Part shown: piece by piece, positions 3,373 to 55,015 of the stretch | Layout of the letters: each line of letters begins with the position of its first letter | Position numbering within the stretch: position 1 is the stretch's first letter | Virus record (IMG/VR): IMGVR_UViG_3300035138_000104 | Location: 1 to 60,599 of that record | From: a virus | Strand: one strand, 5' to 3' | DNA: 60,599 bases | Program-made: the position numbers and the translations under genes | Notes under the pieces: model-generated | What the model saw: the letters and a program-made list of their open reading frames with translations, nothing else | Database searches by the model: none | What the model was told of the DNA's origin: nothing

Positions 3373-3374
3373 AT

Positions 3375-3447: not shown

Positions 3448-3449
3448 AT

Positions 3450-3522: not shown

Positions 3523-3525
3523 TAT

Positions 3526-3759: not shown

Positions 3760-3765
3760 AACGAT

Positions 3766-27389: not shown

Positions 27390-27559
27390 TCAAATATTTT
27401 TTAAAAAGGCAAAACGATGCCGAATTTAAAGAAGTTGCCAGATCTGAATATCTTCATCATCAAAAACAAGCTGGATATTATGTTGGTAACATGATATTAC
27501 GCAGCTTCCATGATAGAGACCAAAATATATCAGGCCAGGCAAAGGAAATTAAAAAATGA
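27386..27559 (+). CDS. Small protein (57 aa)
   Basis: ATGA overlap with the upstream stop. It is below the track cutoff. Confidence 0.5.
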   Translation: MIKYFLKRQNDAEFKEVARSEYLHHQKQAGYYVGNMILRSFHDRDQNISGQAKEIKK

Positions 27560-27645
27560 AAGATAACACCGCCTTTGCAATTTTTATTATAGTTATGTTT
27601 ATCATAGCTGTTTTATTATTATTTTTAGCAAAAATATTATTTTAA
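27556..27645 (+). CDS. Hydrophobic mini-protein (29 aa)
   Basis: ATGA overlap. MKDNTAFAIFIIVMFIIAVLLLFLAKILF is a single TM helix. Confidence 0.4.
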   Translation: MKDNTAFAIFIIVMFIIAVLLLFLAKILF

Positions 27646-27657
27646 GGAGAAATAAAA

Positions 27658-27957
27658 ATGAAAGCAATCAAAATTGATAAATACCAAAAAGTAGGTGACT
27701 TGGAATATTCAATAAAACTCAATGTAAAGTTAACATTTTGGCTAGCCGTGAAATTACGTATCGCCGGTATTTATAATCTTTTAGACGCAGAAGAACATAA
27801 ACCAATCCATAAACAAACAAATATATATCATAATGCCAATAGAATTGATACTTCTAATTTAAAATCTGGACAAGCAATTAGTAATGATTCAGAATTAAAA
27901 TTGGCTAAAAAATTAGAAAAAGACTTATTAAATAAAAGAGGAAGAAGATTCAAATAA
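27658..27957 (+). CDS. Hypothetical protein (99 aa)
   Basis: AAGGAG lies 8 nt upstream. Its 3' end overlaps the 3' end of the convergent gene 27950..28639 by 8 bp. Confidence 0.6.
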   Translation: MKAIKIDKYQKVGDLEYSIKLNVKLTFWLAVKLRIAGIYNLLDAEEHKPIHKQTNIYHNANRIDTSNLKSGQAISNDSELKLAKKLEKDLLNKRGRRFK

Positions 27958-28639
27958 ATCTAACTTTCAAAGGTTTTTCAAATCCATAGACTGGCCTTCT
28001 GGAAAACATATAATTCCCTGAATAATCTGTAATCACATAAGAAAGATTCTTATAGCAAAAAATAGACTTATATTCTATATCAAAATCATTAAACTTATGA
28101 ACTAATTCATCTAATACGAATATGCAATTACTCTCAGTCATTGCGATTAAAGTATATCCTTTAGATTTAGCCATGGTTTTTAATGCCAAAGCAGAACAAC
28201 CAAAATTACTATTTTTCTTGGCTATCATGTTCATGAAAGGTGGAATTGTAGGGTTATATTCACAAATAAGCACTCTGGGGCGTGATTTTAAGTCCTTTAG
28301 TATAAAATAATCATTTCCGTCTATATCAATGCTTAGAAGGTCAATTTTAGTGTATCTGTTGATAATATCCGCATTCTTGACCCATTCATTGACAGCAATA
28401 CAATCATACCATCTAATATTACGTTCCAATTCATCAAACTTTTTTTTATTGCCTTCTATTAGAATGGCTTTCCATCCATTACGATATAAATTACAAACAT
28501 TAGAATAATGAACGCCATCCCATGAACCGAGATCAATACATACATTATGCCTTATTTTTATAATTTGAAATATCTTGGCGATTATGCCATCTTCCCCGAA
28601 TTGAGAATAAACATTAAATCCAAAATCTGATAATTTCAT
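27950..28639 (-). CDS. SAM-dependent methyltransferase (FkbM-like)
   Basis: 229 aa. YSQFGEDGII...CIDLGSWDG N-terminal pattern, then ...LSIDIDGNDYFIL. Confidence 0.55.
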   Translation of the reverse strand: MKLSDFGFNVYSQFGEDGIIAKIFQIIKIRHNVCIDLGSWDGVHYSNVCNLYRNGWKAILIEGNKKKFDELERNIRWYDCIAVNEWVKNADIINRYTKIDLLSIDIDGNDYFILKDLKSRPRVLICEYNPTIPPFMNMIAKKNSNFGCSALALKTMAKSKGYTLIAMTESNCIFVLDELVHKFNDFDIEYKSIFCYKNLSYVITDYSGNYMFSRRPVYGFEKPLKVRFI

Positions 28640-28643
28640 TTAT

Positions 28644-30311
28644 TTATCCCTCATAATCTAATAATTTTAATTCATTTTTTAATAATTTTTTATTACAGTT
28701 AAAATAATTTTCTACATCTTTAATATCGATATCCAATTCTTCAGAACATTCTTTTATATCTTTTACCCATTTATTTAATCGTGCCATTTCGATGTTAAAC
28801 TTTTTCATAAACTCTTGATTTATCTTACAATGAATATTTCCATTTTTATAAGCTCGGACTCGCATGAATTCTTTATCAAGCAACTTGTCATAATAAAAAA
28901 TATTTTCTTCACCTGGTTGCCATTCAAAATTAAAACTGCTCTCAATATTTTCAAACCCTAAATTATTAGCAACTGTTGAAATATCATTTATGAAAGTATG
29001 TACATCCTTATAAAGTCCGTTTGAATAATCATAGCTTCTATACCCAGATTCATCAAAACAAGAATATCTTCTAAATACTAATCTATAATCTAATTTAAAA
29101 TGAGTTTGTTTAAATTTCTGAAATCTCCATCCATCTTCAACTAACTTCTTATTAGATTTATAAAGTCTAATATTTTCTTTATCTGCCATTTCAAAATATA
29201 CATCCTTAAGCTGTTCATCTATATATATATTTGCATTCTTTAAAACCCATATAATTAAAGCGTAAGCATTTTGTCTTGTAAAATCAATATTAGTTTGACT
29301 ATGTAATTTATCTAAAATAATTTTTCGACTTTTTGATGTTAATTTTTCAGTAATTTTATTTAAATTATCAAATAATTCTTTCCAATATAGATTTTTTAAT
29401 CCTTTTATTTTTTCTTTCAATCCTGATTTTAGGTTGCCTAAATTAACTCCCATTTCTTTAAATAGTTCAGCACCTATATTTTCAAGTTGTTTATAAGTAT
29501 TCAATAATTTTTCTAAATCTTTTTGATACAATTCTTCTAATGCTTCAATTATATTGCCTTGAATTAATTGTTTAATATTTTCTTTTTTCTCTTGTTCAGT
29601 TTTATAATTCCAATCCTTTTTTTTATCAGCATTTATCTTAAAATTTTCTTCAAACCAGATGTCAAATGGATCAGTTTTTTCTTTTTTGAAATCTATTTTT
29701 ACTATATCTATTTTAGCCCTTGATTCTCGATATTCAGAATTTAAAAAATCATCTGAATAAATAATTTGATATTTATTATCTTTAATTTTCCCGACATCGT
29801 CTACATATTTATTTAGTCTCTTATTTAATATATTTAATATTTCTTGATCCTCTTTCCAACGTTCAGGAATTATCAAATATATTACTTTACAATTAGCTTC
29901 TTTAAGAATTTTTAAAGTCCATTCTTTAAACTCTTTATAAGGCGGATTACAAAAAATAACATCAACTTTTTTATCAATTAATGTTTGCTTTAAAAAATCC
30001 GTTCCTATTATAATTATATCACTTGGCATACTATCGATTAATATTTTTGATTTTTCAATAGCAAATTTATCTATATGAGTTTTCGATGTGTATTCATCTT
30101 TTGGTTTTGGAAATAAATCTTCAAAAAGTTGAAAAACATTTCCATTTCCTGCTCCGATATCTAGCATAGAAAAATTTTCAACCATCCCTGTATAATCTTT
30201 TTTATCTTTAATATAATCATAAAAAATTGTTTCAATCATTCTTTTCGTTGTTGGATACCACTCAAAATCTTCATTATTTTCTTTTAATTTAAATAATAAA
30301 TCCTGCGTCAT
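28644..30311 (-). CDS. Amino (N6-A/N4-C) DNA methyltransferase with a long uncharacterised C-terminal region
   Basis: 555 aa. Motif I MLDIGAGNGNV and motif IV FCNPPY lie in the first ~150 aa. No motif is recognised in the remaining ~380 aa. Confidence 0.7.
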   Translation of the reverse strand: MTQDLLFKLKENNEDFEWYPTTKRMIETIFYDYIKDKKDYTGMVENFSMLDIGAGNGNVFQLFEDLFPKPKDEYTSKTHIDKFAIEKSKILIDSMPSDIIIIGTDFLKQTLIDKKVDVIFCNPPYKEFKEWTLKILKEANCKVIYLIIPERWKEDQEILNILNKRLNKYVDDVGKIKDNKYQIIYSDDFLNSEYRESRAKIDIVKIDFKKEKTDPFDIWFEENFKINADKKKDWNYKTEQEKKENIKQLIQGNIIEALEELYQKDLEKLLNTYKQLENIGAELFKEMGVNLGNLKSGLKEKIKGLKNLYWKELFDNLNKITEKLTSKSRKIILDKLHSQTNIDFTRQNAYALIIWVLKNANIYIDEQLKDVYFEMADKENIRLYKSNKKLVEDGWRFQKFKQTHFKLDYRLVFRRYSCFDESGYRSYDYSNGLYKDVHTFINDISTVANNLGFENIESSFNFEWQPGEENIFYYDKLLDKEFMRVRAYKNGNIHCKINQEFMKKFNIEMARLNKWVKDIKECSEELDIDIKDVENYFNCNKKLLKNELKLLDYEG

Positions 30312-31111
30312 TTATTTAACTCCATTTGATGCTTAAGATTTGATATATTTGTGCCTTCAGTTGAAATATAAGTATCAACTGCATGTTTTAAATTATGCTG
30401 CTTTTCTCTAAGATTTCTAAAATCCTGAGAAAGTATTTCATGTTCTTTTTCTAAACGCAAATAATCATCTATCAATTTATTGAGTAACTCAAAACCATGG
30501 TAAAATGGGATTGTCTTAATTTGCCAATTCTCCCAAATCCAATCTATCTTATAAGTAAGTTGATGTGTTTCACTTAAAACATTACAGAATTTATCCTTAT
30601 ATTTATCAAACTTTTTATCAATATGATGGAATTGAACCTGGATATTATCAATTACTAACTGTAAGTTATTTTTAATTATATCGTCTAAAATATAATATTC
30701 AGCCCCTTCCACATTAAGTTTAAGCAGATCTATTTTTGTAATCTCATTTTCTTTAAAAAATTCACTTAATTTTTTCATTTCCACATAGAAAGCACTCTCT
30801 AAGTCTACTCGAAAGATTGATGAAGAATCATCTTTTAATTGTATAGGTGTCAACTCTTCTTTATTATGTAATCCAAAATTATATAAATGGATTTTATTAT
30901 TCTCTGCAAACTTATCACATAATAAGTTAAAAAAATCTGGAATAGGCTCAAAAGCATAAATATTACATTTATATTTACTATATATTTTTTCAATAAATTC
31001 ACCTTTATACGCCCCTACATCAAAAACAATGGAATCTTCATTCAATGGATAATCAAGTCTTAATGTGTTATTTCCATCAAAAATATCATTCCATATATAA
31101 AATTTGCCCAT
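30308..31111 (-). CDS. FkbM-family methyltransferase
   Basis: 267 aa. FDVGAYKGEF and LNVEGAEYYIL patterns. Confidence 0.6.
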   Translation of the reverse strand: MGKFYIWNDIFDGNNTLRLDYPLNEDSIVFDVGAYKGEFIEKIYSKYKCNIYAFEPIPDFFNLLCDKFAENNKIHLYNFGLHNKEELTPIQLKDDSSSIFRVDLESAFYVEMKKLSEFFKENEITKIDLLKLNVEGAEYYILDDIIKNNLQLVIDNIQVQFHHIDKKFDKYKDKFCNVLSETHQLTYKIDWIWENWQIKTIPFYHGFELLNKLIDDYLRLEKEHEILSQDFRNLREKQHNLKHAVDTYISTEGTNISNLKHQMELNK

Positions 31112-31827
31112 TAATATTCACCCCACTTATCATTAAATATAAGTTTCCCTTTCCTGATAAACTCTTGCTCTTGATCCCATAAAAACTTATTTTGTGTATG
31201 ATATTCCCTATTTATTGGACAATGCCACAAATGAATATGATTTATTGAGCGATCAAATATAATTTTATTTCCATATTTTTCCAATCTCAAATTTATACTT
31301 TTATCTTCCGCAGCATACCCCAAATAATATTCGCTCCATCCTTTTATATCAATAACAGACTGAGTATGGAATAAGCCTATTCCATGAGCTTCACCTGTTG
31401 GATGCTGTTTAAACTTATCAGCAATGATTAACAAATCATCATAATTACCTGAATAATATTCCATAGGCATTGCTATATTGCGAGGAATCACCCGAACCGG
31501 TTTATTCTGTATATGTGAAATAATTCGTTTAATATAATCCTTTGGATAAACAAGGTCTATATCTGAAAAACAAAAATAATCATAATCCTTTAAATAATAT
31601 TTCACCATATAATTCATTAAAAGTGATTTATTAAAGTATTTATTATAAGGTTTATGAATATAAACAATTTTATCATGATCAATAATATCAATATCTTCTT
31701 TAGATGCATTTAAGATAAATATCTTATCAGCTTGTAATAAAATAGAATTTAATGAGCAATTGAAGCGTCTCATTGCATTAGGAAGGGAATCTATTTTAAA
31801 GTTTATAACATAAAGTATTGGTATCAT
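31111..31827 (-). CDS. GT-A fold glycosyltransferase (GT2 / beta-4-GalT-like)
   Basis: 238 aa. FSDIDLVYP (DxD) and GWSEYYLGYAAEDKSINLRL (a WGxEDxD-like region). Confidence 0.55.
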   Translation of the reverse strand: MIPILYVINFKIDSLPNAMRRFNCSLNSILLQADKIFILNASKEDIDIIDHDKIVYIHKPYNKYFNKSLLMNYMVKYYLKDYDYFCFSDIDLVYPKDYIKRIISHIQNKPVRVIPRNIAMPMEYYSGNYDDLLIIADKFKQHPTGEAHGIGLFHTQSVIDIKGWSEYYLGYAAEDKSINLRLEKYGNKIIFDRSINHIHLWHCPINREYHTQNKFLWDQEQEFIRKGKLIFNDKWGEY

Positions 31828-32741
31828 TTTTTATATTTTTTATACTCTTTCATCTGTTCTTTGGTAAGCCCCTTATTCCAAGCAGTTAATCCTCTATAAT
31901 TTCCTCTACCTCTTTTCCATCCCATTTTTATATAATAATCTAATTCTTCTATTTTAATTATCATGTCAATATTATCTTTATAAATCCATCTTCTATTTTT
32001 ATTTTTAATTTTTAATCTAGCTATTGTTTTTTCTGAATGATGTTTACCATACATATGATTATTTTTTCCACTATTGGACAAACTATTTTTAAAATTAGCC
32101 AATAAAGAATGACCTCGTCGCCAACCTTGATCAATATATTCTTTTAATTCATTTTTTTTTATATATTTTTCCTTATCGTTTTTATTAATACATATTAATT
32201 TTTTCTTAGCATTGCTTATATTCTTTCTATGTTCTTTTGAAAATTTTTTTCCTTTAAAATAACCTATATGCCCCATCAAAGCTTTACTTATCTTTTTTCT
32301 TGATTCTGAATATTTTCTCATATGATTGTTGTCGCCTCTGATTTTATCGCCTTTCCCATAATTAGGATTATTTTTACCTTTATTACTTAATTTTCCTTCT
32401 TTAAATAATTTCTTTAGTGATTCACTATTTTTTTTATTATGTTCTTTAGTTTTTGGGATTCCTTTTAATAAATCACCTATACCTTCACCGCCTTTGGTTA
32501 TATTATAGCCATTAGGGGAAATACTATTATAATATTTAATCCAGCCTTTCTCTCTTTCATCTAATATAGTTTTATTTAATATATTATTTTCTAATATATC
32601 TTTTTTAAAATTTTCCTTTCCATATTTTTTAATGGCTAATTTAATTAATTTCCCAGAACCATAATAATTATTATTATTTTTAGAATCTTGCCCTATATAT
32701 ATTTTCCCATTTATTAAATTAGTTGTTTTATAAATTATCAT
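31824..32741 (-). CDS. GIY-YIG homing endonuclease with NUMOD3-like repeats
   Basis: 305 aa. IIYKTTNLINGKIYIGQ...YYGSG at the N terminus, then repeated GKNNPNYGK and GKNNHMYGKHHSEKT motifs. Confidence 0.8.
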   Translation of the reverse strand: MIIYKTTNLINGKIYIGQDSKNNNNYYGSGKLIKLAIKKYGKENFKKDILENNILNKTILDEREKGWIKYYNSISPNGYNITKGGEGIGDLLKGIPKTKEHNKKNSESLKKLFKEGKLSNKGKNNPNYGKGDKIRGDNNHMRKYSESRKKISKALMGHIGYFKGKKFSKEHRKNISNAKKKLICINKNDKEKYIKKNELKEYIDQGWRRGHSLLANFKNSLSNSGKNNHMYGKHHSEKTIARLKIKNKNRRWIYKDNIDMIIKIEELDYYIKMGWKRGRGNYRGLTAWNKGLTKEQMKEYKKYKK

Positions 32742-33286
32742 TATTTTGCGACCAATAAATCAGATTTAAATAATAATTCATCTTTTCTGTAAGAATCTTC
32801 ATATATGAATTCAAAATATGGATCAATTTTCATCAATTTTGATTTGATATCAGATAAATCAAAATCACAATTTTCAGATTTTTTCCAACATCTTAGATCA
32901 TCTATTATTATTATATCACCTTTTTCATAAAATTTGGAAATAATCTCTAATTCATCCATTAAAGGATTAGGTTTTTCTCCATAAACAGTTGTGCCTCCAC
33001 TATCATGTGCATCTAAAAAATATGTTATTTTAAAAGAAGAATAAATCCTATATTTTGAAATTATATTTCCTAATAATTTAGTAGAATCTCCAAGAAGAAT
33101 ATCAACTTTAATATTATGATGAAATCTTTTTTTACAAGTTATATATAATTGAGTTGATAATTCTATAGAATGTATTCTATTAAATTTAGAATCCAAAGCT
33201 GCTTGAATTCCGTCTCCAATTAAACTCCCAGTCTCCACAAACACATCATTTTTATACTTACTTAATATTTCACTATTTATTGGCAT
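32741..33286 (-). CDS. Hypothetical protein (possible methyltransferase-like fold)
   Basis: 181 aa. VETGSLIGDG Gly-rich loop and IIIIDD. The resemblance is weak. Confidence 0.35.
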   Translation of the reverse strand: MPINSEILSKYKNDVFVETGSLIGDGIQAALDSKFNRIHSIELSTQLYITCKKRFHHNIKVDILLGDSTKLLGNIISKYRIYSSFKITYFLDAHDSGGTTVYGEKPNPLMDELEIISKFYEKGDIIIIDDLRCWKKSENCDFDLSDIKSKLMKIDPYFEFIYEDSYRKDELLFKSDLLVAK

Positions 33287-33920
33287 TATTTTTCTCCTTT
33301 CTTAAAATAAATGATACTCTCGTACCTCTTATATAATAAGCCTCATATAAAGCCTTGTTTTCTTCTATTATCTGATAAATAGCTTTTTGAACACCATCCA
33401 TCAATGTATCATGCCATATAATGACTTTTGGGTTAGATTTTAAGGCGTTTATAGAATCCACATAACAAAACTCATAATTATGCCTACCGTCAATATACCA
33501 GGCATCAATTGGGTAATATGGTGAAAAATCAAAATCTTTTGAGTTTCCAAATAATTGAGTATAAGTAAATTCGCATCGTTCACCTACTTTTCCTTCTGGT
33601 TTTTCACTATTCCAATTTAAATAGACATCTTTAGTTTCATCATATCTGACCGGTAAATCAAGTGAATATACTTGTTTACCTTGCATAGCATTACAAATAA
33701 TTCTAGTCCCCTCTCCTAAGTGAGTTCCTATCTCACAAAATGACTGAGGATTTACTTCCCTAATTATTCCATGTAAAGCCAAATAATCCTCTTTAAAGCC
33801 TTCACATCCCATGAAATCCCTATATATTAAAGCATCATGCATATATTTATCAAAATAGCTTAATGATAATAATTCAAAATATTTTGGGTTTATATTAATA
33901 TATTTTTGTCTATTATCCAT
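33273..33920 (-). CDS. Class I SAM-dependent O-methyltransferase-like protein
   Basis: 215 aa. FCEIGTHLGEGT (motif I) and DGRHNYEFCYVD...IIWHD. Confidence 0.5.
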   Translation of the reverse strand: MDNRQKYININPKYFELLSLSYFDKYMHDALIYRDFMGCEGFKEDYLALHGIIREVNPQSFCEIGTHLGEGTRIICNAMQGKQVYSLDLPVRYDETKDVYLNWNSEKPEGKVGERCEFTYTQLFGNSKDFDFSPYYPIDAWYIDGRHNYEFCYVDSINALKSNPKVIIWHDTLMDGVQKAIYQIIEENKALYEAYYIRGTRVSFILRKEKNNANK

Positions 33921-34294
33921 TATTTTTCTTTTATTTCATAGCCAATAATATTTTCTGCTATATTTTCAGATATTTTAATTAATACATTAGCCGGTAATTT
34001 ATCTTTTAAATATCCAATAATTTCTTTTTCTAATTCAAAATTTATATCTTCTAGTATTAAAAAAATAGTAGATGTATCCCTATTGACAACAATAGTTATT
34101 GAATCAAACCAATATTGAACCAATACAAAATATGCTATATTATATATAGTGCAGAATTTTGAATTAAATTTTTCATTAAAATTATTAGATAAAATTTCAT
34201 CTTTACAAAAAGTATAAACCTCAATGTTATTTATTTTTATATCAAAATATTTAAAAAATAATTTTTTAATGATTTTTTTTAAAAATTTTACCAT
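33920..34294 (-). CDS. Hypothetical protein (124 aa)
   Basis: ORF in the island gene train with no recognised motif. Confidence 0.6.
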   Translation of the reverse strand: MVKFLKKIIKKLFFKYFDIKINNIEVYTFCKDEILSNNFNEKFNSKFCTIYNIAYFVLVQYWFDSITIVVNRDTSTIFLILEDINFELEKEIIGYLKDKLPANVLIKISENIAENIIGYEIKEK

Positions 34295-34686
34295 TTTTTC
34301 TCCTCTAAAATTTTTGTCGTTGATATATCAGGTGTTCTAGGTAAAATAACAATATCTGGATAATCAAAAGGCTTCATGTTATTTTGCCCAACTGATTTTA
34401 TCCATAAATCCACCATTTGAAGATAAGGTGTCATGTCTAAAGTATCAACTACAATTACTTTATCAGCATATGGCATTACATTATCAATTCTTACAAATAA
34501 AGGATCAATAGGCCTATCCTGCCCTTTTTGAACTTTTACAATATAATCTGTTACAACTGCCACGATTAGATAATCACAATGTTTTCTGCATCGTTTTAAA
34601 AATATTCTATGCCCTTTATGGAATAAATCAAATGTGCCGGTTGTTAATGCTAGTTTCATATCACCCCCATTGTTCAGCCATTGCAT
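34288..34686 (-). CDS. Cytidylyltransferase-family protein (TagD-like)
   Basis: 132 aa. TTGTFDLFHKGH carries the HxGH nucleotidyltransferase signature and is closest to the TagD GTFDLLHxGH form. Confidence 0.7.
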   Translation of the reverse strand: MQWLNNGGDMKLALTTGTFDLFHKGHRIFLKRCRKHCDYLIVAVVTDYIVKVQKGQDRPIDPLFVRIDNVMPYADKVIVVDTLDMTPYLQMVDLWIKSVGQNNMKPFDYPDIVILPRTPDISTTKILEEKKW

Positions 34687-35233
34687 CAGCTATACCCTGA
34701 AATGTTCGGCTTCTATCTTTTGAATTTCTAGGCATTTTGTACCATCCTGAAGTATATCTAAACCCATTTTCTGTTATAATATAAGTTAATTCAACTTCTT
34801 TTGTTTTTTGGAGCAAAGGTAAATTTTTTAACCATAAACAAGTTTTTTTTGAATAATCATGCCCAAAATAATATGGTTGTATAATCTGATTATAATTTGG
34901 TAAATTTGCCATTTTAGATGGTATTGGATTTTCTATGCATATTTTTTCTATATTAGCATTATATAATTTCATAAAAAATGTTTTCGATATTTTAATATTT
35001 TCATTTTGATTTTCTATTTTGTTTAATCTTGATCTATTTCTACATAAATAAGTACATGGAGGATGGGCAACCATTAAATCCCAATCATTATCTAATATTT
35101 CTAAAACATCACTTTTAATATGTTGCCCCGGTATTTCAGTATCTAATAAATCACATGACCAGGCATCATGTCCACGTTTCCTAAAAGCCTCCCTTATAAT
35201 ACCAGAAAACTCACATGCTATTAAAACTTTCAT
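34661..35233 (-). CDS. Short C5-cytosine DNA methyltransferase-like protein
   Basis: 190 aa. IACEFSGIIREAF (FxG loop), HPPCTYL (ProCys motif), CIENPIPS (ENV-like). Confidence 0.5.
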   Translation of the reverse strand: MKVLIACEFSGIIREAFRKRGHDAWSCDLLDTEIPGQHIKSDVLEILDNDWDLMVAHPPCTYLCRNRSRLNKIENQNENIKISKTFFMKLYNANIEKICIENPIPSKMANLPNYNQIIQPYYFGHDYSKKTCLWLKNLPLLQKTKEVELTYIITENGFRYTSGWYKMPRNSKDRSRTFQGIADAMAEQWG

Positions 35234-35838
35234 TTATTTTCCTTTTTCTCAATTCTCCAATCATGCCCATATCTAAACTCACAAAATCGATCTGGTTTGT
35301 GCGGACACGGTAAAGATAAATTGCCTATTTTAGATTTATCCAAAGGGAATAAATATTCAACTGGAAAATGCTTCCCTTTATTTTCATCTTTGCCCTGAAT
35401 ATATTGTTTACGGTATAAACAAGCTGTATTATATTGCCATCTATCCTCTTGCCAGATTTCTTTAAATGGCATGATTTGAACATCCCATGCAAAGATATCC
35501 ACATGAAGTTCATTTATTCTGCTATAATCTAATCGTAAAAAATTAGGATAGAACCAACTTACTAGATGGAATCCCATCAAACGAAATTCATCGCTTAAGC
35601 ATAATAGTTTATCTAAATCCTGCCTTAGTATACCAATATCGCAATCATCGTCATAGGGTATTATTTGCCCCTGTCTTATACTTCCAAGCAATGTGCCATA
35701 ATCAATCCAATATAATATATTATGCTTTCTAAATACGATATCTATAGCAGATAATAGTTTCATAAGATTGTTTTTGCAGCATTCATTTAATGGGAATCCT
35801 TTTTGTATATCGCACTTTTTAGTATCTTTATTACACAT
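35230..35838 (-). CDS. LicD-family phosphotransferase
   Basis: 202 aa. WIDYGTLLGSIRQGQIIPYDDDCDIGI matches the LicD/fukutin-type signature. Confidence 0.7.
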   Translation of the reverse strand: MCNKDTKKCDIQKGFPLNECCKNNLMKLLSAIDIVFRKHNILYWIDYGTLLGSIRQGQIIPYDDDCDIGILRQDLDKLLCLSDEFRLMGFHLVSWFYPNFLRLDYSRINELHVDIFAWDVQIMPFKEIWQEDRWQYNTACLYRKQYIQGKDENKGKHFPVEYLFPLDKSKIGNLSLPCPHKPDRFCEFRYGHDWRIEKKENK

Positions 35839-35848
35839 TTTAAATTGC

Positions 35849-36130
35849 TTATAACCTTATATTTTCTTTTAAGTTATTCAAATTATTAATACAAGACTCT
35901 AACGATCCGTTAAAATTCTTTAATTTGTCACCTAAAACAGTTCCACATCCTTCTGATAATTTGGAGTCTAATTTTTCAGTTGGATATTCTTCAATAATAT
36001 CAGCACATCGTTTTCTTAAAGAATTAATAGCATGATCCAATTTTTCTAAATGCTCACCAATTAAACGCACCTCACGCCCTATTTCATATTCTATTCGTTC
36101 TTTCTCATCAGTTTTTTCTAACTCATACAT
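35849..36130 (-). CDS. Hypothetical helical protein (93 aa)
   Basis: ORF in the island gene train. Confidence 0.6.
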   Translation of the reverse strand: MYELEKTDEKERIEYEIGREVRLIGEHLEKLDHAINSLRKRCADIIEEYPTEKLDSKLSEGCGTVLGDKLKNFNGSLESCINNLNNLKENIRL

Positions 36131-36175
36131 ATTTAATCTCCTAAAAAAAATATATTTTTAACCATTAACAATGGT

Positions 36176-36991
36176 TTATCCCTCAATAAACTCAACTTTA
36201 CTCTCAATATGGCAAGAGTTGCCGTTAAATATTTCAAGTTTACTATAATCAATAACATAGCCATCTAAATATTTATAATTCAAAAACTCCGCAGGTATTC
36301 TTCCGTGCCTATTCTTATTATCCATTTGCACCCGATTTATAGGCAAATTTACAATCTTAGGTTCATCAAAGCCCATCATTAAATATCTAGCATAAGGCAT
36401 TATACGAGCAAAAAAGCCCTCAAGTGTATTGGGGGATCTAAACTCAAACTTCTTAATATAAGGCAGAATAAAGTCCGTCTCATATAAATTAAAATCCAAA
36501 CTGAATGGATAAGTCCAGTCCCCTTCTTCTCCCTCGGTCCAATTCCACAAATTATAATCCGCACCCTTGATTAAAAGCGGCCGGGATATAAATCTATTCT
36601 GTGTATAACAATAAGAAATATTCTTACCGAGCCTTAATGACAAAGTAATTATCTCAGGGCGTTGCTTAAAGAAATCAACCTCTTTACATTGCAAATCAAA
36701 ATCACGAATAAAAACATCATCATCAGTCCCAAATATAACAAGTTCTTTACTTGTATCTATGCAATTAATAACATTCTGTCTAAATGTCACTTGTTTGACA
36801 AACTCAATATTACCCTTACATTCATTTTTAAGCTTATTATATCCAGCTTCAAAACTATCATTAGAATAAGTATAAATAACCTTAATCTCCTGGTTATCAA
36901 AATCATTCCAATGCATTTTCATGGATCTTAATAACAATTCTAATTGACAAGGTCTATTAAAACTAAAAATTATTATATTTGCTTTATTCAT
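36176..36991 (-). CDS. Putative GT-A glycosyltransferase
   Basis: 271 aa. N-terminal IIIFSFNRPCQLELLLRSM and FGTDDDVF. Confidence 0.45.
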   Translation of the reverse strand: MNKANIIIFSFNRPCQLELLLRSMKMHWNDFDNQEIKVIYTYSNDSFEAGYNKLKNECKGNIEFVKQVTFRQNVINCIDTSKELVIFGTDDDVFIRDFDLQCKEVDFFKQRPEIITLSLRLGKNISYCYTQNRFISRPLLIKGADYNLWNWTEGEEGDWTYPFSLDFNLYETDFILPYIKKFEFRSPNTLEGFFARIMPYARYLMMGFDEPKIVNLPINRVQMDNKNRHGRIPAEFLNYKYLDGYVIDYSKLEIFNGNSCHIESKVEFIEG

Positions 36992-37054
36992 TATACAACT
37001 CCAAAAAAATTTAATTTAATAAAATATAATTTAATATAAAGTAAGCCGACAAAA

Positions 37055-37690
37055 TTATATTTTTCTATCTTCTAAGACTATAGAATAATCAAGGCTCTTT
37101 TGCATTATATAAGAAAAGCCTGTCCTCTGTGTTATTTGACGAGGATTCATGCAAAAACTCTTTTTATATTGTTCCTGGATTAAAAAGCTCAATAATACAT
37201 CGTATTGAGTATTAACCTCCTTAAACTGCAATATCTGATTATAGATGCTAGAATTAACGCAATAAGCATGTGTAGTATAACATCTATAAACACGCATTAT
37301 ATCTTTATTATAAATATCGTAATGATGCCCTGAATTAACATTCAAGTTGCCACCAAAATAAAATAAATGCCAATCTCCATTTAATATGAAATCTTTTACC
37401 ATTCCCAATTTTTCTAAAAAAGTATCTTTTATATTTATATCATCTTCAAATATACATACTCTATCAATGCCGTTCTCTTTGCATTGTTCAATAATAGCCA
37501 AATGTGACAATTTACATCCAGCCTCACGATCTTGTAATGTTTGACCGTTATTTACTTTAATGCCTTCAAATATAATATAATCGGATATCCCAATTTTAGC
37601 AAGTTGTTTTTTTGCATGTTCAAGGCGTTCAGCATGTTCAGGGAGATTGATCAAATATACAACTGGAAATAATTGATTAAAATTGAACAT
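37055..37690 (-). CDS. Glycosyltransferase family 25-like
   Basis: ATG at 37690 follows GGAG. VYLINLPEHAERLEHAKKQL, CKLSHLAI, IFEDD. Confidence 0.6.
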   Translation of the reverse strand: MFNFNQLFPVVYLINLPEHAERLEHAKKQLAKIGISDYIIFEGIKVNNGQTLQDREAGCKLSHLAIIEQCKENGIDRVCIFEDDINIKDTFLEKLGMVKDFILNGDWHLFYFGGNLNVNSGHHYDIYNKDIMRVYRCYTTHAYCVNSSIYNQILQFKEVNTQYDVLLSFLIQEQYKKSFCMNPRQITQRTGFSYIMQKSLDYSIVLEDRKI

Positions 37691-37833
37691 TCTTTTTTCT
37701 CCGTATTGATTTAAACTTAATATATTTAAGCCGTCCACAATTTTTACATATCTTAGATTCTTCTATACCTATAATATCTTTCGAAAAATATTTGATTTCG
37801 TTAATTTTTTTACTCCAAACATGTAAACACATA

Positions 37834-38532
37834 TTACCTCTGAGTTTCATTCAACCTATACGCCGAATTATTCTTGCCTATATGCTGAAAATAATTATCG
37901 GTAAAATAAGCAATCTTAAGTCCTTTTCCTGCAACCTGGCAGGCATAATTGAACTCAAAACCGAATATATCTTCTCTAAAGCGCAAATTATTTTCTTTTA
38001 GCTTTTTGACATTGATTAAGCTAGGATTCAAAGTGAACCCTGGAAATGCTGGTCTGCCTAGACTATCAACTGATTTGACATTATAGTCATATTTTATATA
38101 TTTTTTATTGCCTAATTTTAAAGTCTTTTGCCCTATTGCTGTTATATCAGCTTTACGGTGGTATTGGACCTGGACAACATTATCATGCTTATTAAATATC
38201 TGAAACGCAGTTTTAATGAAATTATCAGACTTAACGCACTCCCAATCGTCCTCACATAAGAACAAATAATCATTAGATACTAGATTAAATAAAACATTCA
38301 TAGATTTTGGATGCGACTTATATTCTGTTTTATTCACAAATATTAATGGCTTGCCTAATTTTTTTAATAGTCCCATCATTAAAATAATATCTGGTAATTC
38401 TGAATTATCGTCTATCAATATTATTTCTGATACCAGATCCCATTCCTTAAAGTTCTTCAATAATGAATTGAATGTTTTTAAAAATAAGTTATATCGTTTG
38501 CATGTAATAAAGCCTAATGAAATTTTTAACAT
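37834..38532 (-). CDS. Glycosyltransferase family 2-like
   Basis: 232 aa. ILIDDNS (DxD-type) and LCEDDW. Confidence 0.6.
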   Translation of the reverse strand: MLKISLGFITCKRYNLFLKTFNSLLKNFKEWDLVSEIILIDDNSELPDIILMMGLLKKLGKPLIFVNKTEYKSHPKSMNVLFNLVSNDYLFLCEDDWECVKSDNFIKTAFQIFNKHDNVVQVQYHRKADITAIGQKTLKLGNKKYIKYDYNVKSVDSLGRPAFPGFTLNPSLINVKKLKENNLRFREDIFGFEFNYACQVAGKGLKIAYFTDNYFQHIGKNNSAYRLNETQR

Positions 38533-39957: not shown

Positions 39958-40036
39958 AAAATAAAAAAGACTTTCTGAAGGATGGGAACTGCGAGCTACC
40001 CATTTAACCCTGTCAAAAAGTCTTTTTCTCGCAGTT
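39958..40036 (-). ncRNA. 5'-flank/apical-loop complementary RNA element, copy 3 (leader of the glycan island operon)
   Basis: RNA sense: AACUGCGAG (40036-40028) is complementary to CUCGCAGUU in the 12-nt loop UAGCUCGCAGUU (39998-39987). Inner stem AUGGG/CCCAU. Outer stem AAAAAGACUUU/AAAGUCUUUUU (40027-40017 with 39974-39964), then UAUUUU. Confidence 0.6.
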
Positions 40037-48317: not shown

Positions 48318-48950
48318 TTATATTTTCTTATTTATTTTACTTTGTATTTCGTGATAAGCCTTTTCAGCCTCTTCTTCTGTTAAGCTCTCAAAGTTTACAG
48401 CGCCGATTCTCTTGCCTTTTGACGTAAAATCTATATTCTGTGTTAATAACTTCATATACATAGAAAGCTTTTCAAGAGCATTCTCTCTATTAGCAAGCTT
48501 TACTTTCGTTATCTTTTTGCCTAACCGATTATATGTCGTCTCTATCCCATCAATACATTTAGTTAACTTACCAAGATCATCAAGCTTTCCTGTCTTCTCA
48601 AGCTTTAAATTACCTTCTTTATCAAGAATATCTTCAGTATTATAAAAAGCCCTAAGCTTATACATTTGTATAATTTCATATTCTAAGGTGTCTTTATAGT
48701 CTGATATTATCTCGTCAAGATAATCTTTAATAGCAGCCTTTACGTTAGAGTTTGCAAGCAATTTACTCGCATCAGTTCTGGCGGTATCATAATTTTGTGT
48801 TAAATTTAACTTTAAATATGCTTGTGTACCATTAAAACCATTGTTTACATATTCTGCTATAAATATTCTTTGATTATCTGTAATTTTGGTATTGGTTAAT
48901 AAACTAGATAAATCCTCAGTTGTAGGAATAGCCACCTTGTTGTCACTCAT
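48318..48950 (-). CDS. terS: Terminase small subunit
   Basis: 210 aa. ITDNQRIFIAEYVNNGFNGTQAYLK...ASKLLANSNVKAAIKD matches the Terminase_2-type N-terminal pattern. Confidence 0.8.
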   Translation of the reverse strand: MSDNKVAIPTTEDLSSLLTNTKITDNQRIFIAEYVNNGFNGTQAYLKLNLTQNYDTARTDASKLLANSNVKAAIKDYLDEIISDYKDTLEYEIIQMYKLRAFYNTEDILDKEGNLKLEKTGKLDDLGKLTKCIDGIETTYNRLGKKITKVKLANRENALEKLSMYMKLLTQNIDFTSKGKRIGAVNFESLTEEEAEKAYHEIQSKINKKI

Positions 48951-49307: not shown

Positions 49308-49817
49308 TCACCCCTCAATTTTAATAGATCCTTTATAGAACTCAAAATTATAGAATATATCATTAGGTGATTGCAAACTGGTATCATAGTCAACTTTGCA
49401 TTTCATACCGCCTGCCAATAAACTATCACCAACCACTTCACTACAAATAACCCATTCGTCACTTTCAAATCTGTTGTCTTTTATTCTTCGTAATCTTTCT
49501 ATCCCGGACCACCAGGCTTCAATATTGCCTAAACTATAACCTTTTGTATCTCTTAATATTTGTAATGCACGATATATTCCTTTTTCCATGTTATTCCATT
49601 TAGGACGCTTAACTAAAATATATTCACCTAACTTTAAATCCTGTTCTTTAAATGTCAGATCAATTAATCCTATATTTCTTGGACGTATTTCTAATGCAAC
49701 ATTATCAGCTATAACGATTTCAACATGGTTGAAAGGCCCAGTAGTCCGATTTTTTATTATATTCGCTATAGGCCCTATTTCGGAATAAAATAATATATCA
49801 CCTTTTTTAGCTTCCAT
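49308..49817 (-). CDS. Papain-like (NlpC/P60 or YiiX/C92-type) peptidase
   Basis: 169 aa. GDILFY...FNHVEIV...WVCSEVV pattern. Confidence 0.5.
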   Translation of the reverse strand: MEAKKGDILFYSEIGPIANIIKNRTTGPFNHVEIVIADNVALEIRPRNIGLIDLTFKEQDLKLGEYILVKRPKWNNMEKGIYRALQILRDTKGYSLGNIEAWWSGIERLRRIKDNRFESDEWVICSEVVGDSLLAGGMKCKVDYDTSLQSPNDIFYNFEFYKGSIKIEG

Positions 49818-50019
49818 CTTTAGACTCCTTTTTACAACCTTCTAATCTATATTCTAAAAATTTATATTCCCCAATTAACCATTCAACAAAATCAGAAGAG
49901 TAAACCATACTATTATTTAATTCCCATACCGCAATATCATTTATAATATCCTGTAAAGGGATCTTTGTCTTTTTACCTGTTTTCTCTTCATATATTTCTT
50001 CTAATGTTTTTGGTGGCAT
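49807..50019 (-). CDS. Hypothetical protein (70 aa)
   Basis: ORF in the gene train with GGAG upstream. Confidence 0.6.
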   Translation of the reverse strand: MPPKTLEEIYEEKTGKKTKIPLQDIINDIAVWELNNSMVYSSDFVEWLIGEYKFLEYRLEGCKKESKDGS

Positions 50020-50067
50020 TTTTTAACTCCTTTAAAACTTCTTTCGATAAATAACTATCATCTGGCA

Positions 50068-50202
50068 TTATTTATTCCTATTTTTTATTTTGCTAATATA
50101 ATCATTATTAATTTTAGACAAATTTATATCACTTGAATCAATTCCAAACGGGTACTCTTTTTTAAATATTTCTATAACTTCATTCTCTTCGATTATTTTC
50201 AT
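50068..50202 (-). CDS. Small protein (44 aa)
   Basis: ATG at 50202 follows GAGGUGA. It is below the track cutoff. Confidence 0.4.
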   Translation of the reverse strand: MKIIEENEVIEIFKKEYPFGIDSSDINLSKINNDYISKIKNRNK

Positions 50203-50216
50203 ATATCACCTCATTG

Positions 50217-50492
50217 TTATTTAAAATAAATTGCATATACACAATTATTTACTTTTAAATCTGTTTTCATACCATCAAAAACAAAATCAGTTTTAATCCA
50301 TTTTTTAATAATCACTGGAGAATCTTTTTTATATCCATTTCTAAATATTATATTATTAAATCTTTTATGTTCAGTGCTTTGAACTAATCTACTATGCCAA
50401 TAAGGAGTGACTTCTCTATATTCAATATTTTTTTCGCCTGATTTAATTTTATCAAACCATTCCTTTTTTACTATTAAATATAAATCCTTCAT
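50217..50492 (-). CDS. ASCH-domain-like protein
   Basis: 91 aa. KKEWFDKIKSGEKNIEYREVTPYW resembles the ASCH N-terminal pattern (..sG.KtiE.R). Confidence 0.55.
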   Translation of the reverse strand: MKDLYLIVKKEWFDKIKSGEKNIEYREVTPYWHSRLVQSTEHKRFNNIIFRNGYKKDSPVIIKKWIKTDFVFDGMKTDLKVNNCVYAIYFK

Positions 50493-50512
50493 TCTTTCAC
50501 CTCATATATAAT

Positions 50513-50715
50513 AATAGTTGCTATGGTAAGATTCGATTCTTACAATAAGCACCTAGACAGCGAAACGTTTCAAATATGCTTCTAGGCCTGCGTTCAAGCA
50601 CTTCCTAATGGCTTATTTTTCCCGTCTATAAGTTTGTGTTATGGGCATCCAGTTGCCTACTGGCATAACAACTTATTTCTTAAGGGCGTCTCTATTCCGC
50701 CACATAGCAACTATT
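50513..50715 (-). ncRNA. Candidate ~200-nt multi-helix structured RNA in the ASCH gene leader
   Basis: 13-bp closing helix (50513-50525 with 50703-50715) around four arms. These are hairpin 50526-50543; helix 50544-50550/50611-50617 with inner 50552-50557/50581-50586; stacked helices 50628-50634/50670-50676, 50638-50643/50664-50669 and 50649-50653/50659-50663; and hairpin 50685-50688/50698-50701. The region is visibly more G+C-rich than its surroundings. The strand is inferred from context only. Confidence 0.5.
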
Positions 50716-50718
50716 TAT

Positions 50719-51117
50719 TTAATATTTTAATTCAATTTTTATTCTTTGTCCATATGCCGACCAACCAATTTTAGAATCCTTTGTAACAATTCGATTAAAC
50801 TGTTGACTATTCTTAATTTTAAAGCTTTCTTTGTCGAAATCGTCCACTTGAAAATTAAACACAAATGGGCAACAGCATAATTTCTTTTCATCTAAGTTAT
50901 ATACAATTAAATAAATCTCTTGATCTTCCAATATATATTGAGATAGATCAATAATTTGTTCTTCTGTAGGTACTTCGCCTTCATATATCAATACTGTTGT
51001 TAATTTTTTCTCTTGAATAATTGTTTTATCGTCTTTGCCATCGTCACCGTCCTCACTTTGCTGTAAAGGGCAACTTATTAACATAATACTTAGTAAAATT
51101 AAAATAAAATACTTCAT
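50719..51117 (-). CDS. Lipoprotein (132 aa)
   Basis: Signal peptide ending in the lipobox LISC. Confidence 0.65.
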   Translation of the reverse strand: MKYFILILLSIMLISCPLQQSEDGDDGKDDKTIIQEKKLTTVLIYEGEVPTEEQIIDLSQYILEDQEIYLIVYNLDEKKLCCCPFVFNFQVDDFDKESFKIKNSQQFNRIVTKDSKIGWSAYGQRIKIELKY

Positions 51118-51287
51118 TTTTTCTCCTTTTCTATAAAATATTTAATAATTTTTTTCCATTCTTTTTTAATTTCATTTTGAACATTAAGATCAATTTCATA
51201 CCATTCATCCCCTAATCCTGAACGATCTGCAATATCAGAAATTATAGCACTAATAATTTTATCTATTGTCTTATCAGATATCTTCAT
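51114..51287 (-). CDS. Small protein (57 aa)
   Basis: ATG at 51287 follows AGGAG. It has ATGA overlaps with both neighbours and is below the track cutoff. Confidence 0.5.
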   Translation of the reverse strand: MKISDKTIDKIISAIISDIADRSGLGDEWYEIDLNVQNEIKKEWKKIIKYFIEKEKK

Positions 51288-51532
51288 TCTTTATTCTCCT
51301 TAATTTTTATTAGTTTAAATTTATCGCCTACTTTATAACTTTCTTCAAAAGTATAAAAGTAATAATTTACACCATCCGCATCTTTTAAATAAACTTTTTT
51401 TCTAAATTCATTTTTTATACCCTTAATCTTAATAATACAATATTCTTCATCAAATTTAATATGCTTTTCAAAAATTGGTTCACAACTAACCAACATAATA
51501 AATACCAATAAAATAAATAATAATTTTTTCAT
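51284..51532 (-). CDS. Lipoprotein (82 aa)
   Basis: Signal peptide MKKLLFILLVFIMLVSC with the lipobox LVSC. Confidence 0.65.
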   Translation of the reverse strand: MKKLLFILLVFIMLVSCEPIFEKHIKFDEEYCIIKIKGIKNEFRKKVYLKDADGVNYYFYTFEESYKVGDKFKLIKIKENKE

Positions 51533-53839: not shown

Positions 53840-53887
53840 AAAATTACTCCTATATATTAAATATAATTCAACTCCTTATATAAATTA

Positions 53888-53960
53888 TAGGCACGGTAGG
53901 ATTCGAACCTACGATGTAACTTAATGCAAACTAGTATGACTCAAGCCTTTGTCCATGCCT
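53888..53960 (-). tRNA. Degenerate tRNA-like element (UGC at the anticodon position)
   Basis: 73 nt. Good acceptor stem AGGCAUG/CGUGCCU and T arm GUAGG-UUCGAAU-CCUAC. The D stem is displaced and has 3 bp (GAC/GUC), and the anticodon stem is weak (ACUAG/UAAGU with an A-A mismatch). Confidence 0.4.
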
Positions 53961-54070
53961 ATAACAAAAGGGATAAGGAGAAAATTTATTACAAGAAATT
54001 ATCATGAAAAAAAGTCTTATAAAAGATGTTGATAAGAAAGATTGCATTCAAAACTCCTTATCCCTAAAAA

Positions 54071-55015
54071 TTATTCTTCATATGCCCAAACATCATTATA
54101 CCACATATTATTTTGACTTACACTTCCAGCTATTATCAATAATTTTCCATCAAAAACCACAGCTGATAATGACGCTCTTTTGCCCCAAGGAATATCCCCT
54201 AATTGACTCCAACTTGAACCATTCCAAACATATACATCGTTGCCTACATTATCTTCAGAACAATCTGGTTCATGCCATTCCATAGTATTCTGAATAACTC
54301 CGCCTATAAGATACATATTATCATTATATACGACAAGCCCACTTCTAGCCCTTTCATAGATAGAATTTGAACTTGCTTGAATCCAATTATATCCGCCATC
54401 TGTACTATAATAAGCATCATCTCTAAGATAATAAGTACCGACTCCATAATTACCACCAATAACCCATATTTTCCCGTCTTGGTCTTTTGCAGAAATATGA
54501 TTACATCTTCCACCCCAGCTTGCATGTTCTACTAATCGAGTAAGGACTGTCCCGTTAAATGACCATACGTCATCAGCATCCCAATACTGAGTTTTTTCTG
54601 CGTTGCAACAATACCCACCAATAATGAGGATTTGACTCTCAGATATTTTCACGATTGTATGTCCAGCCCTACGGCCAAGGGAAGAAGAACCAGAAAAACA
54701 ATCCCAATAATAGCCATCTATACTATACCATATATCTGAAGCAAGAGTCCCCGATTCAGTACATCCTCCAAAAAGCCAGTATTTCCCTTGAAAATATACT
54801 ACTGCATGAGAACGCCTATAACACCAAGGATTATTCCCACCTGTATCCACTTTTTTTTGTATCCATATTCCACCATCATTGCTTTCCCAGACATAATTAT
54901 GAAAATCATTATTATGTCCTCCAATTTTCACTAATTTTGTGCCATTGTTGACAACAATATTAGATGTCTCGTCTGCAGGGAAATTAGCATTCCCTGTTAA
55001 TTTTGTCCAACTCAT
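54071..55015 (-). CDS. Kelch-repeat beta-propeller protein
   Basis: 314 aa. Repeated units contain GG(x)n...W..Y/W signatures (KIGGHNN...VWESNDGGIW, LFGGC...IWYSIDGYYW, IIGGY...VWSFNG, VIGGNYG...AYYSTDGGYNW, LIGGV...VYVWNGSSW, IIAGS...VWAYEE). Confidence 0.65.
   Translation of the reverse strand: MSWTKLTGNANFPADETSNIVVNNGTKLVKIGGHNNDFHNYVWESNDGGIWIQKKVDTGGNNPWCYRRSHAVVYFQGKYWLFGGCTESGTLASDIWYSIDGYYWDCFSGSSSLGRRAGHTIVKISESQILIIGGYCCNAEKTQYWDADDVWSFNGTVLTRLVEHASWGGRCNHISAKDQDGKIWVIGGNYGVGTYYLRDDAYYSTDGGYNWIQASSNSIYERARSGLVVYNDNMYLIGGVIQNTMEWHEPDCSEDNVGNDVYVWNGSSWSQLGDIPWGKRASLSAVVFDGKLLIIAGSVSQNNMWYNDVWAYEE

Follow-up and report, generated by a model that had tools for sequence, protein, structure and literature searches.

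What occupies the 226-nucleotide (nt) gap between a lipoprotein-like gene and an ASCH-like gene in the virus record IMGVR_UViG_3300035138_000104? The whole stretch analysed here (positions 1–60,599, hereafter the window) is a ~60-kb phage genome of 29.5% G+C in which all open reading frames (ORFs) of at least 150 amino acids (aa) lie on the minus strand, and an initial annotation had proposed that the gap encodes a multi-helix RNA, perhaps a riboswitch or an RNA partner of the ASCH-like protein. Read on the gene-sense (window minus) strand, the element in the gap, designated V1, is well supported by comparison with its relatives as a non-decoding, tRNA-derived structured RNA element, and also well supported as one allele of a repeated intergenic cassette family in AT-rich environmental phages. 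V1 is a worn-down cassette in the shape of a tRNA; its interior can be swapped, and in related phages the cassette recurs between genes that are unrelated to one another. The identity of the element rests on tool results; its mechanism is what we infer.

Alleles at the lipoprotein junction

Searching via the upstream lipoprotein proved productive, with relatives of 60–91% identity found on independent metagenome contigs and none in genome contigs. Where downstream sequence was available in these relatives, a non-coding gap was present just past the lipoprotein gene at a conserved junction; in L034, an extra 86-aa gene separates the lipoprotein gene from the element. The junction alleles share a conserved 5′ flank (...TTAAAATATTAAATAAATAG), which is kept behind the different upstream gene of L034, and a conserved 3′ flank (CTATT(ATT)ATATATGAGGTGAAAGAATG), with CTATTATTATATATGAGGTGAAAGAATG being the same or nearly the same ahead of unrelated genes in L027–L034, L037 and L040. 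The 3′ flank motif occurs a single time in the window, and one of its four matches in metagenome contigs was a true relative. The gene past the conserved Shine–Dalgarno sequence (SD) differs in every locus.

Between these flanks, the sequence is unrelated among alleles and ranges from 78 to 203 nt. The allele in the window is here called V1, those found at the junction in other contigs V2–V7, the one in L040 V9 and the one in L045 V8. The interiors of the seven junction alleles (52–177 nt between the helix strands) show no mutual relation, and the V1 insert resembles none of the other allele interiors in either sequence or length. Every allele is closed by a helix of 11–13 base pairs (bp) that begins with (A/U)AUAG and finishes with CU(A/G)UU, and in the type II alleles (V4, V5, V7 and V9) this helix is kept with no recognisable T arm. 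The genome most closely related to the window (large terminase subunit, TerL, 96% identical) carries the lipoprotein gene and V2 in a rearranged neighbourhood (L037, L043). Two side observations concern the genes around these alleles. A mini-ORF with its own GGAGG SD (MDEEQE* or MKVEIMDEEQE*), absent from the window, stands past the lipoprotein stop codon and just upstream of V3/V4 in L027 (2965–3030), L028 and L031, and the first ORFs past the element in L029 and L030 encode very hydrophobic short peptides (MFILLVIFFIIIINKIL..., MGIIILGFTFIVFFLIGFFVGRSTK*) similar to small membrane toxins or holin-like peptides.

Covariation of the closing helix and two arms

The closing helix was tested on a trimmed alignment of its seven distinct versions, in which the interior was swapped for a linker. 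In this alignment, 89% of the cells were paired and both sides had changed in 9 of the 13 pairs, values that none of 500 shuffles matched except for the measure of further pair types (1/500); slid-register controls gave 27–51% paired cells. Of the 11 well-supported pairs, five are wobbles (G-U or U-G) on the sense strand and one is a mismatch; the five would read as A-C mismatches on the opposite strand. Since the wobbles are G-U only on the sense strand, V5, V6 and V7 fold far better on this strand than on the antisense strand. The closing helix thus compared is under selection, and is so on the gene strand. For the D-like arm, compared across six distinct scaffolds, three of the four stem pairs have changed on both sides and 95.8% of the cells are paired, and the T stem contains one compensatory pair, U-A to C-G in V2. 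As the D-like and T-like arms co-vary, more than the helix is under selection in type I alleles.

These comparisons bear out the proposal that the gap holds a structured non-coding RNA element closed by a 13-bp helix. The perfect 13-bp inverted repeat is present exactly where the initial annotation had placed it (P1 in Table 1) and the closing helix has a pairing probability above 0.9. The four-arm, closed multi-branch minimum free energy fold was likewise reproduced, the arm at 50628–50676 included, but comparative support in V1 is limited to the closing helix and the arms at 50701–50685 and 50543–50526. The two large arms predicted in the 141-nt insert (50676–50628 and 50617–50544) have none, and the predicted apical loop in the insert is of 5 nt, compared to the 7-nt anticodon loop of tRNA.

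Considered as a single sequence, the case for the element is weak. About 1.8 perfect 13-bp repeats with 40–260 nt between the arms are expected per 60 kb from dinucleotide shuffles, with at least one in 72% of the shuffles. The fold of the whole element has a z-score of −3.9 on the sense and −6.4 on the antisense strand, driven mostly by the closing helix, and the interior alone is not significant on the sense strand (z = −1.2). The plus strand of V1 folds better, yet the genes and the sense of the element are on the minus strand, and the better-folding strand would be misleading. The gap itself (50493–50718) has stop codons in every minus-strand frame and contains no ORF on the coding strand. 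Its G+C content of 0.40, against a window average of 0.295, places it in the top 2.5% among 200-nt windows, in agreement with its description as G+C-rich; that it is the only large gap does not hold, as larger or comparable gene-free gaps are found at 27275–27827 (553 nt), 53840–54070 (231 nt) and 1–264. A blastn search of V1 against INPHARED phages gave no match, and a 20-mer of the big hairpin is absent from IMG/VR.

Table 1. Features of the V1 element, of two further elements and of selected genes in the window.
Feature	Position	Strand	Description
P1 5′ strand	50703–50715	minus	AAUAGUUGCUAUG; half of the perfect 13-bp repeat
D-like arm	50685–50701	minus	GGCG-GAAUAGAGA-CGCC; one nt (U, 50702) past the helix
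Variable insert	50544–50684	minus	141 nt; position of the anticodon and variable arms
T-like arm	50526–50543	minus	GUAAG-AAUCGAAU-CUUAC; 5 bp, 8-nt loop, abuts P1 3′ strand
P1 3′ strand	50513–50525	minus	CAUAGCAACUAUU; acceptor 3′ half CAUAGCA, discriminator-position A (paired), CUAUU
3′ flank	50490–50512	minus	AU-rich linker AUUAUAUAU, SD GAGGUGA 50503–50497, ATG 50492–50490
5′ flank	50716–50752	minus	A/U-rich, ...UAAAUA before the helix; lipoprotein stop codon 50721–50719, 3 nt from the helix
W2, second family member	53884–53965	minus	Helix UAUAGGCAUGG/CCGUGCCUAUA; canonical T arm GUAGG-UUCGAAU-CCUAC; no proper D or anticodon arms
X1, helix-closed element	53969–54065	minus	12-bp perfect helix AGGGAUAAGGAG/CUCCUUAUCCCU around 73 AU-rich nt
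Lipoprotein-like ORF	50719–51117	minus	Upstream side of the 226-nt gap
91-aa ORF, ASCH-like	50217–50492	minus	Downstream side of the 226-nt gap
Terminase small subunit (TerS)	48318–48950		Identified gene of the window
Six tRNAs	3223–3760		

Relationship to tRNA

The layout of V1 is tRNA-like. The acceptor UGCUAUG/CAUAGCA lies in the 13-bp helix. Its 5′ half is the inner 7 nt of the P1 5′ strand, and through the outer 6 nt the leader is paired with the trailer; next come a U, the D-like arm, the insert and the T-like arm. With tRNA (RF00005), V1 shares a 7-bp acceptor, the 5-bp stem of a T arm abutting the 3′ acceptor strand and a D-arm position one nt past the 5′ strand; in addition, an encoded CCA is missing, as it is in all six tRNAs of the phage itself, and some copies of the element stand beside tRNA genes. 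The link is strongest in V3, at 78 nt the shortest allele, in which the 13-bp helix is exactly as in V1. V3 scored 34.2 bits against the Rfam tRNA model, compared to a cut-off of 29 bits, with the acceptor, the D arm and a canonical T arm aligned and the anticodon arm truncated, and the bases of the P1 3′ strand align in V3 to positions 65–71 of the model. This match was overlooked in a 25-kb multi-locus Rfam search and recovered by a short-range search.

A significant match to a known family, which the initial annotation had regarded as evidence against its candidate, has therefore been found indirectly, in an allele with an identical helix. V1 itself matched no Rfam family at the gathering cut-off or at E ≤ 10 (RF00005 included), which agrees with the earlier statement that it could not be assigned to a curated family; V2 gave no tRNA match, and ARAGORN made no call among the elements scanned, V1, V3 and W2 included. 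V1 differs from tRNA in that the helix extends six pairs beyond the acceptor and takes in the discriminator position, which is free in tRNA, and in that the 141-nt insert stands in place of the anticodon arm. Its T loop is an 8-nt AAUCGAAU, whereas V3, L070 and W2 have the canonical 7-nt loop (UUCRANY in tRNA), and its D-like loop is without the GG of canonical D loops. The place and stem of the T-like arm match the canonical T arms of V3 (GUAAG-UUCAAAU-CUUAC) and L070 (UUCGAAU), and the arm was recovered by a scan for a T arm plus acceptor.

The window holds a second family member, W2, with an AU-rich stretch and then an SD past its 3′ end. Its 3′ half aligns with V1–V3, these two features included, and its score against the Rfam tRNA model (23.9 bits) is below the cut-off. 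W2 and X1 are found in tandem within the 231-nt gap, upstream of a 109-aa ORF, and X1 is possibly a related kind of punctuation element. When the T-arm and 3′ acceptor pattern of V3 and W2 was used as a query, 18 bacterial loci were matched, 14 of them genuine tRNAs according to ARAGORN (Met, Val, Ile, Arg, Leu, Ala and Asn). In more distant relatives, found via the small terminase, the corresponding region upstream of TerS is occupied by genuine tRNAs, which in one relative stand beside RtcB. In L044 (2545–3963), three tRNAs (Pro, Gln, His) come first, then a gene for the RNA ligase RtcB and, immediately past it, the small terminase gene. From a MAFFT alignment of the phage tRNAs, RNAalifold recovered the T arm and no more than a part of the anticodon arm, too little for a tRNA model.

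Wider family and cassette exchange

When the 3′ end of the scaffold was used to scan IMG/VR, five more viral contigs (L066–L070) were found. All five carry the 5′ strand (A/U/C)AUAGUUGCUAUG, a part outside the search pattern, together with a D-like arm, a T-like arm and unrelated interiors, at total lengths of 112–192 nt; the P1 5′ strand is the same in V1, V2, V3 and L066–L070. In the element of L070, which lies 5 nt past a tRNA-Tyr gene, both the D loop (AAUUGGAAG) and the T loop (UUCGAAU) are canonical, and the element of L066 lies 11 nt before a tRNA-Cys gene. There are one to three copies per contig, and past the family members come an AU-rich stretch and the strong SD of the next gene, whichever that is. 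L067 has three copies, which flank small ORFs; a 60-aa ORF lies between two of them, each of which starts 6 nt past an upstream stop codon, and one allele is present in two copies that are 96% identical and have unrelated flanks. A tRNA-looking sequence (acceptor CCGGGTG/CACCCGG, T loop TTCGAGT) that ARAGORN did not call is located at ~945–1017 of L067, directly upstream of a type I element.

Close relatives at the lipoprotein junction indicate how alleles are replaced. Over the 3031 nt that end at AATAG, L027 and L028 share 99.9% identity, after which L027 has V3 and L028 has V4; the difference is confined exactly between AATAG and CTATT, and the 3′ flank is identical again. V4 and its flanks (~170 nt) are 100% identical in L028 and L031, the lipoprotein genes of which are only ~82% identical. 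In both comparisons the element is at exact gene-replacement boundaries, as are the PeSLs discussed below, and a swap of alleles by recombination at the conserved ends is well supported.

Proposed function and competing explanations

The explanation we favour, with a probability of about 0.45, is that of a tRNA-derived cassette acting as a cis punctuation or processing element and as a recombination junction. According to this model, the element would punctuate long one-strand polycistronic transcripts in cis, its acceptor/T-arm module being a predicted substrate read by host RNase P on the 5′ side and RNase Z on the 3′ side. Cleavage would split the upstream from the downstream message and release, or leave behind, a compact tRNA-shaped RNA, and the downstream mRNA would gain a short AU-rich leader with an exposed strong SD. 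Having no role in processing, the interior would be free to vary, and the conserved ends would double as recombination junctions shuffling small accessory genes. The acceptor/T-arm is the module of tRNA that RNase P and RNase Z recognise, and in many bacteria tRNA genes without an encoded CCA are linked to 3′ processing by RNase Z. The punctuation role is favoured because the conserved parts of type I alleles (the helix and the T-like and D-like arms) are those that tRNA-maturation endonucleases read. It is further supported by the lack of CCA in the phage tRNAs, by the SD, which is mostly unpaired (P(unpaired) 0.64), and by a scan of 49800–51400 in which no canonical terminator was found. The SD, which the initial annotation had correctly placed next to the helix, begins 10 nt past it, with 9 nt in between.

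Several points weigh against this model. Processing by RNase P and RNase Z is deduced from the way in which the two enzymes generally recognise the acceptor/T-arm module, and in V1 the acceptor is inside a continuous 13-bp helix with the discriminator paired, such that the cleavage sites are buried; in known systems, a buried acceptor with a paired discriminator hinders both enzymes. The T and D loops of V1 deviate from those of tRNA as described, and V1 and V2 are without any tRNA score. The functional core may be no more than the helix, given that the type II alleles at the same junction have it but show no T arm that could be recognised. Part of the 3′ conservation seen in L066–L070 was built in by the search pattern, and recent recombination, instead of purifying selection, may explain why alleles are 100% identical between samples. 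Two of the alternatives, a trans-acting payload RNA and a helix-only role, are accordingly serious ones.

In the first of these, the element is a trans-acting stable RNA on a tRNA scaffold, with the hypervariable insert as a payload (regulatory RNA, decoy or protein sponge). The RNA would be excised like a tRNA and accumulate, the frame providing processing and stability, and a possible aim would be host tRNA-directed defences. Such a role would fit a scaffold that is kept around inserts with no mutual relation, which differ between genomes that are nearly identical, the location of some copies at most 12 nt from true tRNA genes, the RtcB gene beside tRNAs in one relative and the identity of each allele across independent samples. 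It would also fit the promoter-like sites found immediately before the helix, both in the window and in L069. The one in the window is a sigma-70-like site (TGGACA-17-TAAAAT, 50752–50724) with a predicted start at about the first base of the helix, and is the best promoter-like site in the region, in which such sites are not enriched (15 compared to 10.8 ± 3.4 expected). On the other hand, the interior folds no better than shuffles, and no convincing complementary target of the insert was found in the window (best matches E ≥ 0.45). Multiple inter-ORF copies and a fixed distance of 3–6 nt from the upstream stop codon, measured in three cases (the window and two L067 copies), are more cis-like, and the scaffold is missing from type II alleles. 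We therefore regard a payload RNA as unlikely, albeit worth serious attention. To a similar degree it is doubtful, but conceivable, that the elements represent an undescribed phage class of non-decoding tRNA scaffolds with an extended acceptor helix and hypervariable payloads, matured by the host and exchanged as cassettes, which would act both in trans, e.g. as decoys or guides against host tRNA-directed defences, and as shuffling junctions.

The second alternative, which we hold to be no more probable than the first, is a cis element consisting of the long-range helix with its A-rich 5′ and U-rich 3′ flanks, in which the tRNA-like features are mere ancestry. The helix could be cut by RNase III, could act weakly as an intrinsic terminator with a large loop, or could stabilise or insulate mRNA 5′/3′ ends. 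It is indeed the sole feature common to all alleles, including type II, X1 and V8; the 3′ flanks are U-rich, e.g. CUAUUUUUUUUUAU in L066 and UAUUUUUUAU in V8, and by inspection the conserved flanks could add ~3 A-U pairs beyond a bulge. However, 11–13 bp is short for RNase III, and the 52–179 nt enclosed in type I and junction alleles is far beyond the loop size of known intrinsic terminators. The U tract of V1 is interrupted (UAUUAUUAUAUAU), and the scan around V1 found no terminator, whereas the relative L044 uses canonical ones. Co-variation of the D-like and T-like arms in type I alleles also speaks against a role for the helix only.

A further reading, in which the elements are tRNA genes in decay that lie at a recombination hot spot and are now functionless, would account for the true tRNAs at equivalent positions in relatives, for the resemblance of V3 and W2 to damaged tRNAs and for the absence of ARAGORN calls among the scanned elements. 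Yet in the helix, the D-like stem and the T-like stem, the only changes are compensatory ones or ones that give G-U, and the 12-bp helix sequence is kept in at least eight contigs that share only short matches with the window (≤461 nt, blastn). There are several copies per genome with different flanks, and the leader-trailer extension is conserved although it is not a feature of tRNA. A neutral pseudogene would hardly be expected to show compensatory changes in three stems, to retain the helix extension and to be present several times in one genome, and we consider this explanation improbable.

The initial annotation had raised the idea of a ligand- or protein-sensing leader (riboswitch or leader aptamer) for the ASCH-like gene, or an RNA partner of its product. 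The position directly upstream of a strong SD is suggestive, and the 91-aa protein looks ASCH/PUA-like by its predicted fold: the Pfam ASCH match is sub-threshold, and the AlphaFold model (pLDDT 89) gave ASCH/PUA-like structures as best matches (3iuw and ZmASCH, TM 0.65–0.68). ASCH/PUA-like domains bind RNA. However, the would-be aptamer, the least conserved part, is replaced by unrelated sequence in each allele between constant flanks. The SD is not sequestered, being largely unpaired while the helix is formed, and no terminator, anti-SD alternative or other expression platform was seen. A riboswitch is excluded as there is neither a conserved aptamer nor an expression platform, and a specific partnership with the ASCH-like gene is contradicted by the varying downstream genes: the same junction precedes another, unrelated gene in every other locus. 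Among the first relatives the element follows the lipoprotein gene, and more broadly it is a repeated intergenic unit. The nearest relatives of the ASCH-like protein are at most 52% identical, and none of 23 viral loci with such relatives has a comparable gap or similar upstream DNA (blastn, nhmmer). On these comparative data the idea seems largely refuted, and we give it very little weight.

Still less credible is a DNA-level element defined by inverted repeats, i.e. an invertible segment, a miniature inverted-repeat transposable element (MITE) or an integron-attC-like site, in spite of terminal inverted repeats with conserved outer bases (AATAG/CTATT), precise, cassette-like swaps and one allele at two L067 sites with different flanks, because Pfam found no integrase, invertase, transposase or reverse transcriptase among the window ORFs of at least 150 aa, all five imperfect helix pairs are G-U on the sense strand and the tRNA-like orientation is always that of the genes, where DNA models predict neither a strand bias in the mismatches nor a uniform tRNA orientation, the 52 bp between the repeats of V3 are too short for inversion, and neither an allele in inverted orientation nor an apparent target-site duplication was seen.

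Comparison with known systems

The tRNA cluster of phage T4 includes two stable non-tRNA RNAs, species 1 and 2 (rnaC/rnaD), of ~120–140 nt and unknown function, which are co-located and co-processed with tRNAs and have tRNA-like termini. These are single genes, in contrast to the repeated intergenic cassettes with swappable interiors described here. In mitochondria, tRNAs punctuate polycistronic transcripts, and the mascRNA of MALAT1 is a tRNA-like 3′-end processing signal. The mechanism we propose resembles these in that tRNA-shaped inter-ORF modules would be cut by RNase P and RNase Z, which is not known to occur with non-decoding tRNA-like modules in phages or bacteria; the extended leader-trailer helix has no counterpart there.

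The tRNA-like domain of tmRNA and the bacterial Y-RNA-like YrlA resemble the element in having paired 5′ and 3′ ends and a T-arm-like module with a large non-tRNA interior. A tmRNA was rejected on the grounds that neither ARAGORN nor Rfam detected one (no model match at E ≤ 10), the third acceptor pair is C-G and not G3-U70, and there is no tag ORF; a Y RNA was rejected as no Y RNA/YrlA model matched at E ≤ 10 and no Ro/TROVE protein was found among the scanned ORFs. A retron msr-msd RNA was dismissed as no reverse transcriptase domain was found in the window ORFs of at least 150 aa. Other candidates considered and rejected were 6S RNA, cos/pac/ori sites, type I/III toxin-antitoxin systems and P4/P1 immunity RNA.

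PeSLs, which combine promoter and terminator in a composite stem-loop motif, mediate modular shuffling in T4-type phages (PMC2839356, PMC4122927). Like the element, they are short conserved intergenic motifs on the coding strand that flank variable small genes and mark exact gene-replacement boundaries between close relatives, and the conserved ends of the element would be functionally analogous to them. They differ in being simple hairpins with an early promoter, present in many copies per genome, whereas the element is a tRNA-derived, multi-arm structure with a variable interior, no U-tract terminator and few copies per contig. In the literature, PeSLs are described, but we found no description of the present kind of element.

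Genomic context

Apart from TerS, the genes identified in the window include those for the terminase large subunit, portal, major capsid protein, baseplate, tail and a DnaB-type helicase, as well as methyltransferase/glycosyltransferase genes and two M23 peptidases. An island between the head and portal genes (27950–38532, minus) encodes FkbM-type and other methyltransferases, glycosyltransferases (GT2, GT25), LicD and a NUMOD3 endonuclease-like ORF, and a comparable sugar-modification island follows the terminase in L044. The G+C peak of the genome (53322–53543, minus; 0.6 compared to 0.295) consists of a tandem repeat of the GGCGACGGCTAC type, which encodes an ORF of 73 aa made up of (G-D/N-G-Y)n, and the early region contains a gene for a 314-aa Kelch-repeat beta-propeller protein (54071–55015, minus), which is unusual in a phage. 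Two further helices were noted. In the tRNA array, between tRNA-Met and tRNA-Leu, a 9-bp helix (GAUCGGCAG/CUGCCGAUC) encloses 33 nt (3631–3681, minus) and is followed by a terminator-like AAAGGCUUUU...AAAAGCCUUUUUU. In the gap after a 340-aa ORF, a 16-bp helix with two G-U pairs (GAAAAAGACUUUUUGA/UCAGAAAGUCUUUUUU) spans 66 nt (39963–40028, minus) and may be a large-loop terminator.

Implications

The present analysis removes a false lead, that of a riboswitch or ASCH partner RNA, and defines a signature that can be searched for, (A/U)AUAGUUGCUAUG ... GUAAG-N7/8-CUUAC-CAUAGCAACUAUU. Should the inserts be functional payloads, variable RNAs would be displayed by this family on a natural tRNA scaffold. 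If the processing model is true, tRNA-shaped modules would punctuate very long one-strand phage transcripts, as tRNAs do in mitochondria, and would constitute a new case of tRNA-gene exaptation in viruses; being placed at the exact break-points of accessory-gene exchange, such modules would also help to explain how mosaic phage genomes are assembled.

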